A stretch of 64,000 nt of DNA from Planktothrix mougeotii LEGE 06226 (GTDB taxonomy: Bacteria; Cyanobacteriota; Cyanobacteriia; Cyanobacteriales; Microcoleaceae), in assembly GCF_015207485.1 (NCBI RefSeq), contig NZ_JADEWU010000005.1, forward strand, positions 52,508-116,507. Direction: 5' to 3'. Shown piece after piece: positions 19,411-34,781 of the stretch. Under the pieces are notes generated by a model. It was not told the DNA's origin. It saw only the letters and a program-made list of their open reading frames with translations, and did not search any database. Position 1 is the stretch's first letter, and each line of letters starts with the position of its first letter. The position numbers were made by a program, and so were the translations under genes.

Positions 19411-22341
19411 TTGTTGGTGTGGGCGAGTCGCCAGAAGTGCACCCTACTCCTTGTCTCCTCCTTTCCTCTGTTTCCCCACACCCTAAAAATAATCGGAGAA
19501 TCTTTGTCCCCAGATCGTAAATTTATTACTACTGAACCCCTGTTTATGGGGGGAGAAAAAGCCGAATCTCAAGTCTGGATGGCGATTTGTCAAAGCTTTG
19601 AGCCACGAGATTGTATTGCCTATTGGCGTTATCCGATTTTCTCGAAAAAATTGGGAACCTTTCGGAAAGAACCGGATATTTTAATCGTAGATGCAGAATT
19701 GGGATTAATTATTATTGAGGTGAAATCAATAACAATTGAGCAAATTCTAGGAATTACAGGTCATCGTTGGGAACTCCAAGACTTTTATACCACCCAGGCG
19801 AACCCCTATCAACAGGCAGAACATCAACTATTTGCCTTACTGGACTATTGCAATTTAGAAGAGATTCTGCATCATCAGGTTCCGGGTCGTGTCCTCGTCG
19901 CCTTACCTCGCATTCTTCACTCTCAATGGCAATACCGGGGATTTGATCGGTTGCCGAGTTCTCCTCCTATTGTATTTCAAGAGGATCTAGGGTTTAAGAC
20001 TGTCGAATCTTTAATTACAGCAAACACACCCTTTTTCTCGGAACCTTCACCTGTCAACGGTCAACATTCTAGTTTAATTGAAAAAATTGAGAATGCACCG
20101 TTAGTCACGCGGGGAAGTAAACTTTCTGAGGAACAATGGGCACTGTTAAAGGCGGTTATTAGTGGAACACCGTTATTTCGTCCACCGAGTCGTCGCTTTT
20201 TTTTCAGCCAAACGGAGGATTTAGAAACCGCTTTAACGCGCAGTGCAGTGTTAGCTATTGCTAGAAAACGTATTTCTGAACTGGATTTACAACAGGAACA
20301 AATTGCCAAAGTAATCCCCCCAGGGCCACAACGAATTCGGGGTATTGCAGGTTCAGGAAAAACGGTGTTACTGTGTCAAAAAGCAGCACAAATGCACCTA
20401 AAGCATCCTGAATGGGATATTGCCGTTGTATTTTTTAGTCGCAGTTTATATGATCCAATTTTACAATACATTGATCAAGGGTTAAAGCGGTTTAGTTGTA
20501 ATCAAATCAGGTATGATCCCCAGAATTCTAAATTAAAAGTTCTTCATGCTTGGGGGGCAAAGGATCAACCTGGTTTTTATCGTACTATTTGTCAAGCTGC
20601 GGGAGTTTGGAGCCAAAGTGTTCAACAAACGACTCGTTCAAACGCCAATGAAGCCTTAGCAGAAGCTTGTTATCATTTATTAGCATCGGCAACGATTCCC
20701 ACTATTTTTGATGCTATTTTAATTGATGAAGGTCAGGATTTTATTGTTGATGAAGATTTAAAATTTGAGGGAAAACAGCCTTTTTATTGGATGGCGTATC
20801 AAGCCTTACGTCCTGTTAATCGAGAAGAAGACAATAATTCTGAAATTCCTCAAAAACGATTGATTTGGGCCTATGATGAAGTTCAAAGTTTAGAAAGTTT
20901 AAAAGTACCGACGGCGAGTGAATTGTTCGGGGATGAGTGGGGACAATTGGTTACGGGAGAATATGGCAACGGAATTAAAAAAACCGAGATTATGTCTCGA
21001 TCTTATCGGATTCCAGATCCGATTTTAACGGCCGCTCACGGGATTGGTTTAGGGTTATTGCGTCCGCAAGGATTATTAACCGGAATGAAGTGGGCAGAAG
21101 ATTGGGAAATGATGGGGTATAAAGTCAAGTTAACGAATTTAAAAAAGCCAGAAAACTCTCCCTATAATTCTCCTTTAAAATCAGGTGAAACGATTACAAT
21201 TCAGCGTCCTGAAAATCATTCGCCTCATCCGGTGGCGACGTTATGGAAAAAACCTTTAATTGAATTTGAGGCCTATCGTTCTCGTTCAGAAGAATTAACC
21301 GCTTTAAGCGATCGCATTCTATACAACTTAAAAATTGATGGGTTACGTCCCAGTCGAGAAATATTAGTCATTGTGTTAGGAATAGGGTGGGAAGCGATAC
21401 AACTTGAAACCCAGATTGCTAATTGTTTAATGCAGCAAGGAATTGATATTTTCATCCCTGGAACACCAGACTGTAATATTCTCAAACCGACTTCTAATAA
21501 TACCCATGCCAATCATTTTTGGTGTGAAGGCGGGGTAACGATTTCTCGGATTCATCGAGCCAAAGGACATGAAGCAGATATGGTTTATTTGGTAGGTTTA
21601 GATCAAATTGCTAGTGCTGAAAATAACCTTAATTTCCGTAATCAATTATTTGTGGCGATGACTCGTTCACGGGGTTGGTTGAGGTTAAGCGGTTTAGGTT
21701 CCTATCCTTTTTATGAAGAATTAGCACGAGTCATTGAAAGCGGGAATACTTTAACCTTTCATTTACGGTTTCCCCCCCAACGAGATATTAGCATTACCAA
21801 TGGCGGAGAACTGCTGCGAAGATATAAGAATGGCGATCGCAATTTTCAAGGCGCAAATCTATCCGCTCTCGATTTAACGGGAGTTAATTTAAGTCATGCT
21901 AATTTAATAGGAGCCAATCTTCAACAAACCAACCTCACCCATGCTAACTTAAATTACGCTAAATTAGTAGTGGCGAATTTAAGCCAAGCTAACATGACAG
22001 GGGCTAATCTACAGCGAGTCAAATGTGTTGGGACTAATTTACAACAGACTCGATTGAATTCTTGTGATTTGAGTCGTGCAGATCTCAGTGATGCTGATTT
22101 GAGTCAGGCGCAATTGGTTCGCGCTAATCTAAAGGATGCTAATTTGAGTGGGACAAATTTAACACAGGCTGATCTTTCCGATGCTACTCTTCAGGGTGCT
22201 GTTGTCAATGAGGCCAACTGCACAGAAGTAATTCTAACAGGGACAATATTACCCGAAGGTTGGATATTTGCAGGGGCTATCGGACGACCCTCACTGAATC
22301 AATTATCATTAAAAAAAAGAGTTGAGGATGTTGAGCACTGA
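19411..22341 (+). CDS. Three-domain fusion: NERD (PD-(D/E)xK nuclease-related) domain, then UvrD-like SF1 helicase, then a C-terminal pentapeptide-repeat domain (about 26 repeats)
   Basis: EPDILIVDAELGLIIIEVKS (PD...EVK); Walker A GIAGSGKT; Walker B/motif II ILIDEGQDF; RSYRIP; motif VI VTISRIHRAKGHEADMVYLVG; VAMTRSRGWL. The C-terminal A(N/D)LSxA(N/D)L pentapeptide tandem lies at about 21810-22220. Confidence 0.8.
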   Translation: MLVWASRQKCTLLLVSSFPLFPHTLKIIGESLSPDRKFITTEPLFMGGEKAESQVWMAICQSFEPRDCIAYWRYPIFSKKLGTFRKEPDILIVDAELGLIIIEVKSITIEQILGITGHRWELQDFYTTQANPYQQAEHQLFALLDYCNLEEILHHQVPGRVLVALPRILHSQWQYRGFDRLPSSPPIVFQEDLGFKTVESLITANTPFFSEPSPVNGQHSSLIEKIENAPLVTRGSKLSEEQWALLKAVISGTPLFRPPSRRFFFSQTEDLETALTRSAVLAIARKRISELDLQQEQIAKVIPPGPQRIRGIAGSGKTVLLCQKAAQMHLKHPEWDIAVVFFSRSLYDPILQYIDQGLKRFSCNQIRYDPQNSKLKVLHAWGAKDQPGFYRTICQAAGVWSQSVQQTTRSNANEALAEACYHLLASATIPTIFDAILIDEGQDFIVDEDLKFEGKQPFYWMAYQALRPVNREEDNNSEIPQKRLIWAYDEVQSLESLKVPTASELFGDEWGQLVTGEYGNGIKKTEIMSRSYRIPDPILTAAHGIGLGLLRPQGLLTGMKWAEDWEMMGYKVKLTNLKKPENSPYNSPLKSGETITIQRPENHSPHPVATLWKKPLIEFEAYRSRSEELTALSDRILYNLKIDGLRPSREILVIVLGIGWEAIQLETQIANCLMQQGIDIFIPGTPDCNILKPTSNNTHANHFWCEGGVTISRIHRAKGHEADMVYLVGLDQIASAENNLNFRNQLFVAMTRSRGWLRLSGLGSYPFYEELARVIESGNTLTFHLRFPPQRDISITNGGELLRRYKNGDRNFQGANLSALDLTGVNLSHANLIGANLQQTNLTHANLNYAKLVVANLSQANMTGANLQRVKCVGTNLQQTRLNSCDLSRADLSDADLSQAQLVRANLKDANLSGTNLTQADLSDATLQGAVVNEANCTEVILTGTILPEGWIFAGAIGRPSLNQLSLKKRVEDVEH

Positions 22342-22509
22342 GAGTTGACCGTTGTATGTTCTGACCCCGCTACCCCCCACCCGCCACCGCGTACTCAACA
22401 AACCGCTTCGTAACTTGCCTTTCTGATGTGAAGGAGTGAGGTGTTAATCACCACACGTCCTATTTTCAGATGACACCCTTTCCCGGTTTCGATAAACAAG
22501 AACCCCGCT

Positions 22510-34581: not shown

Positions 34582-34759
34582 ATACTTGTTGGATACTAAT
34601 ATTATCATTGCTCTTTTTGCAGAGGTGAGATTAATACTCATTTTGGTTGGTGTTGCAACAGGGTTCATCCCTATCATAGCTAACCTGATTTCTAAGAAGT
34701 TGAAAAAATTAATTTATGCCCAAAAACATAGGGGCAACTTTCGTCACCCCTATGGTTAA
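34571..34759 (+). pseudogene. Truncated vapC (PIN domain) toxin gene; only the N-terminal about 20 residues are PIN-like
   Basis: MSGRYLLDTNIIIALFA matches the first beta-strand and Asp of VapC PIN domains. The remainder is not PIN-like, and the psaB 3' end abuts it at 34782. Confidence 0.45.
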
Positions 34760-34781
34760 GCATTGATTATTTCAGGGATGA

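Follow-up and report, generated by a model that had tools for sequence, protein, structure and literature searches.

Does a pair of nuclease-helicase genes on the chromosome of a filamentous cyanobacterium mark the two ends of a defense island, or do the two genes merely happen to lie close to each other? The question is raised by a stretch of 64,000 nt from Planktothrix mougeotii LEGE 06226 (contig NZ_JADEWU010000005.1, positions 52,508 to 116,507 of the forward strand), which is called the window here and to which all coordinates refer unless another locus is named. A sequence-only reading of the window had taken the two proteins, P1 and P2, for paralogues that bracket a 15-kb accessory block. 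The present analysis assigns them separate histories: P1 would be a conserved enzyme of genome maintenance or surveillance and P2 a recently acquired gene of defense or plasmid conflict, a joint reading that we regard as probable, with some reservation. The two genes and the domains of P1 are arranged as follows.

19504..22341, + strand: P1, a NERD-like nuclease, superfamily 1 (SF1) helicase and pentapeptide-repeat protein (open reading frame [ORF] listing, domain matches, orthologue alignments; likely start)
19546..19925, + strand: N-terminal NERD-type PD-(D/E)xK nuclease domain of P1 (orthologue alignment, hhalign, PADLOC)
20305..21783, + strand: SF1 helicase core of P1 (motifs, PADLOC PDLC03002, Foldseek)
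21838..22263, + strand: C-terminal pentapeptide-repeat solenoid of P1 (Pfam Pentapeptide, pentad register, Foldseek)
32279..34120, + strand: P2, a stand-alone NERD and SF1 (UvrD-type) helicase protein of the C3a187 family (Pfam, PADLOC)

Domain matches and alignments show P1 to combine a predicted NERD-type nuclease, an SF1 helicase and a pentapeptide solenoid in one polypeptide, with intact catalytic motifs. Its ORF opens at a TTG at 19411, which the sequence-only reading had taken as the start; this is probably too far upstream because the orthologues are conserved only from RKFITTEPL (19516) onwards, i.e., from a point still upstream of the first ATG (19546), and translation likely begins at the TTG at 19504 or at another non-ATG codon close by. 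Pfam NERD gave no match on P1 itself at an E value of ≤0.01; orthologues carry weak precomputed matches to PF08378 (NERD), and the PADLOC model RTasNERD-Hel matches the nuclease region at 1e-6. The N-terminal PD...ExK block reads PDILIVD...IIIEVKS, and the catalytic residues D58, D63, E72 and K74 (945-residue numbering, about 19675-19725) are invariant in 82 orthologues. The same holds in this alignment for the helicase motifs GIAGSGKT (Walker A, 20341-20364), LIDEGQD (Walker B, 20719-20739), YDEAQS, SRIHRAKG.EAD and LFVA.TR; motifs III-VI are intact alongside Walker A and B, and motifs V and VI are invariant. Pfam recognizes UvrD_C_2 (1.2e-11) and Pentapeptide (1.3e-34), and the PADLOC model PDLC03002 ("Helicase") matches residues 272-784 at 1.4e-77 (profile positions 172-643 of 707). 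An AlphaFold2 model was built from the 82-sequence alignment, and for the helicase core Foldseek retrieved RecD, UvrD, PcrA, Rep, Dna2, Upf1 and SLFN11/14, which does not separate SF1A from SF1B. Sequence searches against solved structures (PDB chains) gave no match for residues 1-755 of P1 and none for P2.

Both of the ORFs previously flagged (19411-22341 and 32279-34120, both on the + strand) are thus present, and both products are, as had been claimed, single-polypeptide fusions of a NERD nuclease and an SF1 helicase. Their catalytic motifs are intact; the proposed check of the PD-(D/E)xK residues found them present and invariant in both families (82 P1 and 34 P2 sequences). The earlier count of about 26 pentapeptide repeats at 21810-22220 agrees well with the roughly 27-28 pentads counted at 21838-22263. 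The suspicion that the three-domain build of P1 had not been described is likewise borne out, as no paper on an architecture of this type, combining NERD, UvrD and pentapeptide repeats, was found; databases label such proteins "pentapeptide repeat-containing protein" or "NERD domain protein."

The distribution of P1 was assessed by a protein search (1833 matches, of which the top 120 were inspected) and a scan of one genome per species (470 relatives, of which the best 80 were inspected). All of the top 120 matches are 54-94% identical to P1 and have the same Pfam set, and the best 80 relatives are all cyanobacterial, including Pleurocapsales, Chroococcales and Spirulina, and align through the repeat tail. 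Three-domain orthologues are present in at least 80 cyanobacterial species at 50-94% identity. The closest comes from P. pseudagardhii (94%), followed by those of P. agardhii and P. rubescens (76-77%); full-length three-domain orthologues with 54-62% identity were found in Kamptonema, Limnoraphis, Capilliphycus, Symploca, Coleofasciculus, Microcoleus, Tychonema, Argonema and others, and the repeat tail is also present in the 46% identical orthologues of Cyanobacterium aponinum and Geminocystis. The genomic context of P1 in the window is formed by the following genes.

18058..19218, − strand: HEAT-repeat gene, divergent from P1, a conserved syntenic neighbor (Pfam HEAT_2; 23 loci)
22510-28836, + strand: gene for a Ser/Thr kinase-AAA_16-TPR-GAF-PAS-cyclase protein of 2108 residues (Pfam domains)
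28851-29390, + strand: phosphoribosyltransferase (PRTase) gene (Pfam domain)
29885-30166, + strand: pterin-4a-carbinolamine dehydratase (PCD) gene (Pfam domain)
30267-31910, + strand: GAF-HD-GYP gene (Pfam GAF and HD_5)

The order HEAT-P1-kinase/cyclase-PRTase-PCD-GAF/HD is the same in P. agardhii and P. pseudagardhii, with protein identities of 76-98%. In Capilliphycus, Limnoraphis and Lyngbya, the order is HEAT-P1-PRTase with the PRTase gene immediately after P1, which indicates that the kinase/cyclase gene was inserted into an older syntenic pair. The divergent HEAT gene lies upstream of P1 in 23 of the 80 loci inspected, and in other lineages the upstream side has ahcY-exoD-dedA, with a co-directional DedA/VTT gene in 30 loci, ahcY in 23 and exoD in 13. 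Neighbor clustering across the 80 loci revealed no constant partner gene, only these lineage-specific housekeeping genes upstream. As judged from these comparisons, P1 is vertically inherited and keeps its place on the chromosome, and the 9 kb of genes after it form a block conserved within Planktothrix. The idea that P1 and the giant kinase/cyclase are functionally linked was rejected because the kinase/cyclase gene does not lie beside P1 outside Planktothrix; through its generic domains, the kinase/cyclase itself matches Pycsar-cyclase models and numerous kinase models of PADLOC (PD-T4-6, mad6).

The repeat domain of P1 is under nearly the same constraint as the catalytic parts. Its pentads are uninterrupted and form roughly seven coils, their number is nearly constant among the orthologues, and the column conservation in the family alignment is 0.79, compared with 0.82-0.84 for the nuclease and helicase (0.84 for the helicase). 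Even the outward-facing registers are conserved across orders, with majority frequencies of 0.67-0.72. The net charge is about −3 in P1, with a family median of −1 and a range from −7 to +3, and a C-terminal dimerization helix is not obvious in most orthologues in the alignment. For the repeat domain, Foldseek retrieved HetL, Np275/276, designed solenoids, Qnr, MfpA and AlbG, and the family-specific NCBIfam models remained below their cutoffs on P1 (Alr5209, 98 versus 125 bits; HetL, 90 versus 260; Qnr, 56 versus 240; MfpA, 33 versus 360). These features point to a putative conserved endogenous interaction rather than to a sensor in an arms race. Gyrase-targeting DNA mimics are markedly electronegative, and the combination of a near-neutral charge with the conservation of exposed positions does not appear to favor a simple acidic DNA mimic.

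The picture for P2 is a different one. Pfam recognizes NERD (4.3e-11; 43.8 bits versus a cutoff of 22.1), AAA_19, UvrD-helicase and UvrD_C_2, and the PADLOC model PDLC01087 ("C3a187 NERD+UvrD") matches residues 1-596 at 2.4e-58 (profile positions 1-544 of 559). Its catalytic D51, E65 and K67 (about 32429-32479), Walker A (32963-32986; G229-T236), Walker B (D332-D336) and motif VI (T585-R586) are invariant in 34 homologues, and the Pfam scan revealed no CARF or SAVED sensor domain. P2 is 100% identical only to a protein of P. mougeotii; the next match, from a metagenome, is 75% identical and is followed by proteins of Phormidium, Roseofilum, Lyngbya, Limnothrix and Synechococcus elongatus (61-72%) and of Bacteroidota, Myxococcota and Pseudomonadota (44-52%). 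Other Planktothrix species lack P2: at the locus of P. agardhii the GAF/HD gene directly abuts oppC, and in P. pseudagardhii a full-length vault gene stands in its place. The gene order of the window also occurs on a Logan contig. The homologues of P2 stand alone in unrelated contexts, e.g., amid MNT, NYN and DprA-SLOG genes in Phormidium, and relatives with 33-34% identity are located on enterobacterial and Vibrio plasmids, amid insertion sequence (IS) elements and vapBC pairs. Such pairs flank the relative on a Citrobacter plasmid, a context that echoes the toxin-antitoxin debris beside P2 in the window. The homologue of S. elongatus is the gene directly downstream of one that encodes a minimal CRISPR polymerase (mCpol; locus L010, 7477-7905). 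A patchy distribution and a variable context, the marks of an accessory gene, were found for P2 but not for P1 and the block at 22510-31910. P2 is an ordinary representative of a mobile NERD-UvrD family and presumably acts in defense or plasmid conflict.

The direct comparison of the two proteins also argues against a common unit. BLASTP aligned P1 and P2 only in three short collinear segments (35% identity over 82 residues, 27% over 48 and 29% over 52; best E value, 3e-5). The alignment of the two family profiles with hhalign was confident (96.6% probability), extended over 244 columns from NERD through Walker A with the catalytic motifs aligned, and had an identity of 19%; P1 and P2 moreover match different PADLOC models. 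On these profiles, P1 and P2 are remote homologues from different families, and a functional pairing is not indicated. The earlier estimate of 30-35% identity in the motifs thus holds for the short BLASTP segments (27-35%) and not for the families as a whole, and the term "paralogous" was an overstatement.

The reading that we prefer builds on the architecture, catalytic motifs, distribution and synteny of P1, which the comparisons above show. P1 would be an ATP-driven translocating nuclease that processes DNA, e.g., ends or damaged or unprotected DNA, and would act in genome maintenance or surveillance as the domesticated descendant of a mobile nuclease-helicase. Its solenoid would engage a conserved cellular partner as a docking or gating module rather than act as a fast-evolving sensor, and the obvious candidate for this partner would be an enzyme that binds DNA-shaped ligands, e.g., a topoisomerase. 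P2 would be a recently acquired single-gene nuclease-helicase of the defense or plasmid-conflict type. Several observations weigh against this reading. P1 is not universal in cyanobacteria, and the Nostocales gave only tail-less plasmid copies. The downstream flank of P1 orthologues varies, and in about 15 of the 80 loci it contains genes for GmrSD or a DNA methyltransferase. The AlphaFold2 model (predicted local distance difference test score, 68.5; predicted TM-score, 0.51) suffices for recognizing domain folds via Foldseek and not for docking the solenoid onto the helicase. The gain of P2, as opposed to repeated loss, is read from presence and absence rather than from a reconciled tree. Finally, the relatives of P1 include a validated anti-phage helicase, and P1 itself could be a chromosomally fixed defense gene.

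This last point leads to the strongest competitor, according to which P1 is a dedicated, chromosomally fixed nuclease-helicase against phages or plasmids, a piece of "core" innate immunity that anchors a variable restriction locus downstream. PDLC03002, the model that its core matches, represents the helicase of the Helicase+DUF2290 anti-phage system, and the plasmid helicases that match it adjoin DUF2290 genes; Hma had been considered as the identity of this "Helicase" model and was rejected. The helicase of an Escherichia coli IncI plasmid, 32% identical to the core of P1, matches the model at 4.7e-298 over positions 2-704, the gene after it matches the DUF2290 models, and the same pair occurs on a Lactococcus plasmid; these plasmid helicases are 30-32% identical to P1 over about 500 residues. 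The Helicase+DUF2290 system blocks T7 in E. coli (PMC9122126) and was inactive against the lactococcal phages tested (PMC11381338). The residues of the NERD nuclease of P1 look active, and tail-less relatives of P1 with 720-750 residues and 33-46% identity, collinear from NERD through the end of the helicase (residues 1-760), stand alone on plasmids of bacteria and archaea (Nostoc, Leptolyngbya, Calothrix, Deinococcus and haloarchaea), typically amid IS elements. A GmrSD gene, i.e., type IV restriction, follows the P1 orthologue directly in six loci, in full length in four of them and as a 207-residue ORF plus a GmrSD_N protein in two, and C5 or N6 DNA methyltransferase genes lie downstream in about nine. 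The genomes concerned belong to Coleofasciculaceae, Floridaenema, Aerosakkonema and relatives (restriction-type loci L025, 8779-10461, L026, L031 and L046; L007, 10774-12421, and L039, 8739-10380; L053, L054, L056 and L066), and a variable restriction hotspot may be anchored beside P1.

Against this competitor stand the identity of 50-60% across orders together with housekeeping synteny and the strong purifying selection on all three domains of P1, including the repeat surface, both of which are unusual for defense genes. A tblastn search using two DUF2290 proteins detected no such gene in the window or at any of about 90 P1 loci, nor is there any other constant partner at P1 loci, and searches of phage genomes revealed no relatives of P1 and, for P2, one unannotated contig. 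Restriction-modification genes are abundant throughout cyanobacterial genomes; the counts in the flank of P1, made without a background control, may reflect this general richness only. On balance, P1 as a dedicated defense gene is a possibility to be taken seriously, although a doubtful one. With respect to the origin of P1, the N-terminal region (about 170 residues) of the E. coli plasmid helicase (locus L097, 2999-5158) contains the motif D...FDLIEG and lacks the lysine. The motif resembles a degenerate NERD/PD-(D/E)xK site, which suggests that the Helicase+DUF2290 helicase may have descended from a NERD-helicase with an inactivated nuclease. The simplest history for P1 would be that a mobile NERD-helicase gained a pentapeptide tail and was then chromosomally fixed in a large cyanobacterial clade.

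A second alternative is the original proposal that P1 and P2 are paralogues flanking a defense or accessory island and that the solenoid of P1, as a DNA mimic in the helicase channel, would auto-inhibit the enzyme. It has in its favor the nuclease-helicase logic common to both proteins, the fold that the repeat domain shares with Qnr, MfpA and AlbG according to Foldseek, a CRISPR array at the start of the window, and the accumulation of toxin-antitoxin debris, a vault remnant and P2 at the right-hand end of the interval, where the remaining features are the following.

31862..32092, − strand: remnant of a major vault protein gene, N-terminal part of about 76 residues (Pfam Vault_2, 2.3e-12)
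34354-34581, + strand: small antitoxin-like ORF (DUF2281 at 5e-4, below the cutoff)
34571-34759, + strand: truncated PIN-like ORF overlapping the antitoxin-like ORF (N-terminal motif LLDTNIIIALF, by eye alone)
34782-37013, − strand: psaB, full length (PsaA_PsaB profile, 1288 bits)

Much of the inventory had been read correctly. The interval 19411-34760 contains seven sizeable ORFs on the + strand, bounded by the HEAT-repeat gene and psaB on the − strand; Pfam confirmed the kinase/cyclase, PRTase, PCD and GAF-HD genes, and the vault gene remnant is real. The vapBC debris fared less well, with a DUF2281 match below the cutoff and a PIN-like N terminus seen by eye, and the riboswitch-like RNA between PRTase and PCD did not hold up: Rfam detected no riboswitch there when the whole window was searched at gathering thresholds and nothing meaningful at 29300-30300 even at an E value of ≤1. 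The interpretation as an island is contradicted by synteny. The sequence-only reading had named beforehand what would speak against it, namely, conservation of these genes in the same context in relatives, and this is what was found for P1 and the block, with at least 80 species and housekeeping genes as upstream neighbors of P1; the gene order of the block is kept in P. agardhii and P. pseudagardhii, and HEAT-P1-PRTase recurs in three further genera. The supposed 15-kb accessory block is thus ordinary conserved Planktothrix chromosome. Composition analysis revealed no anomaly in guanine-plus-cytosine content over the flagged region, and apart from the surroundings of P2 the remaining genes of the window are housekeeping genes (petC/petA, Fe-S assembly, transporters, ispG, ctpA, a copper ATPase and psaB). 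Likewise, the profile identity of just 19% between P1 and P2, a median net charge of the repeat domain of about −1 (range, −7 to +3) in contrast to the marked electronegativity of gyrase-targeting mimics, and Qnr and MfpA scores far below the cutoffs all count against it. The CRISPR array is present (1-1042), but the window lacks cas genes, and between the array and both P1 and P2 lie housekeeping genes. What survives of the island is P2, which behaves as an accessory gene of the defense type, in contrast to P1, the intervening block and the rest of the window; the proposal as a whole is unlikely.

Within the window, only P2 and its close vicinity (about 31.9-34.8 kb, probably extending to 39.4 kb) are variable. 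The vault gene is full length at the same position in P. pseudagardhii (872 residues, multiple Vault repeats plus shoulder; locus L004, 22562-22817), so that a homologue of the eukaryotic major vault protein is intact in one species and decayed in the other. The psaB gene at 34782-37013 is solitary, without psaA; it lies in the part of the window (about 31.9-39.4 kb) missing at the P. agardhii locus and may be an extra paralogue inside a variable region.

Still less probable is a role of P2 as an accessory effector of type III CRISPR-Cas, as the name of its model implies. P2 matches PDLC01087 over its full length, and the C3a187 family was defined from genes adjoining type III cas cassettes (PMC6546367; Shah et al. 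2019). The CRISPR array of the window and the mCpol gene next to the S. elongatus homologue might be taken in the same sense. Against this, the family was founded on only three occurrences, the homologues inspected in Phormidium, Cystobacter, Citrobacter and Vibrio have no cas genes nearby, and P2 has neither a CARF nor a SAVED domain. A link between P2 and the array was rejected because the two lie 31 kb apart across housekeeping genes in a window without cas genes. That the tail of P1 senses invaders in the manner of the TPR, LRR and WD40 sensors of NLR/Avs-type immune proteins has the least to recommend it: the C-terminal repeat modules listed for conflict-system proteins of multicellular bacteria include pentapeptide repeats (PMC8195603, PMC10853773), but a near-constant repeat number and exposed positions conserved across orders (0.67-0.72) are the opposite of what an arms-race sensor would show.

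The window contains further elements that concern neither P1 nor P2. The CRISPR array at 1-1042 extends past the left edge and comprises at least 14 copies of the 36-nt repeat TTCCCTACTCGTTAGGGAAATTAATTGATTGGAAAC, separated by spacers of about 35-47 nt; the final copy is degenerate, the next gene encodes an M23 peptidase, and no cas genes were found in the 64,000 nt. Two full-length matches to HEARO, the IscB-associated omega-RNA family, are located at 14776-15005 (+) and 58444-58665 (−), with 139 and 149 bits, one of them upstream of petC and the other upstream of a gene for a DUF305 protein close to a copper P-type ATPase; no IscB/HNH ORF lies next to either, and both copies appear to be orphans. 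Perfect tandem repeats of heptanucleotides (AATTACG, 17 copies; TTCCCTG, 5; GAATTAC, 4) at 16909-17073 and 17933-17963 flank or overlap an alpha/beta-hydrolase ORF (16835-17926). They probably lie upstream of the true hydrolase start because the P. pseudagardhii orthologue is shorter (281 residues). Intergenic perfect tandem repeats were found at 2246-2510 and 49182-49261, with 29-nt and 68-nt units carrying a GGGCT/AGCCC hairpin and a 20-nt unit in four copies.

The orthologues of P1 form a deeply conserved chromosomal lineage of the helicase family of Helicase+DUF2290, a mobile anti-phage system. Few families of cyanobacterial proteins are as expanded and as poorly understood as the pentapeptide-repeat proteins, and partners have, to our knowledge, been identified for only a few of them (gyrase for Qnr and MfpA, HetR/PatS for HetL). 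The conserved, single-copy-looking fusion of a solenoid to a nuclease-helicase is "Rosetta-stone" evidence that at least one repeat lineage may act on DNA-processing machinery, and the tail of P1 offers a tractable entry point to the partner of the repeats. A more specific and tentative idea, which we think rather unlikely in this form, is that P1 represents a widespread class of cyanobacterial enzymes, inherited vertically, in which a motor of a mobile anti-phage family and a NERD nuclease are permanently fused to a solenoid that docks onto, or mimics DNA for, a gyrase or topoisomerase partner and thereby gates or targets the activity. If true, this would for the first time tie the expanded pentapeptide-repeat proteins of cyanobacteria directly, by function, to DNA transactions, and P1 would exemplify a defense enzyme domesticated for genome surveillance.

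Among known systems, Helicase+DUF2290 (Rousset et al. 2022; PDLC03002 plus PDLC02998/02999 in PADLOC) is the closest to P1. The match of P1 to its helicase model (1.4e-77) is restricted to core positions 172-643, as opposed to 2-704 in a bona fide member; in place of the first 170 or so profile positions, P1 has an active-looking NERD domain, to which the pentapeptide tail is added. P1 also lacks the DUF2290 partner and is chromosomal, syntenic and vertically inherited, whereas the system is borne by hotspots and plasmids. The plasmid proteins annotated as "nuclease-related domain-containing DEAD/DEAH box helicase" share the NERD and helicase parts of P1 without its tail. P2 matches C3a187 (Shah et al. 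2019) end to end and differs in not lying beside cas genes. Nhi, like P1 and P2, is a single polypeptide with a nuclease and an SF1 helicase, and NERD is listed for Nhi-like proteins (PMC10952713), but P1 and P2 belong to other helicase families; the Nhi model matches P2 weakly (5e-7) and only in the helicase N-lobe (residues 211-394), and it does not match P1. With Gabija, there are only partial GajB matches to the helicase lobes (1e-8 to 1e-13), and no OLD/TOPRIM (GajA) gene is nearby. RecBCD, AddAB, Dna2 and Schlafen-11/14 have an SF1 motor and a nuclease in cis, as does P1; Foldseek aligns about 600-770 columns of the P1 model with SLFN11/14, RecD and Dna2 at low TM-scores (0.2-0.37), and P1 differs from all of these enzymes in the lack of a sequence-level PDB match and in its N-terminal NERD-type nuclease. 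Finally, the tail of P1 shares the right-handed quadrilateral beta-helix fold of Qnr, MfpA, AlbG, HetL, Alr5209 and Np275/276, but it has no Qnr-type loops, consists of about seven uninterrupted coils of near-neutral charge and is fused to an enzyme.

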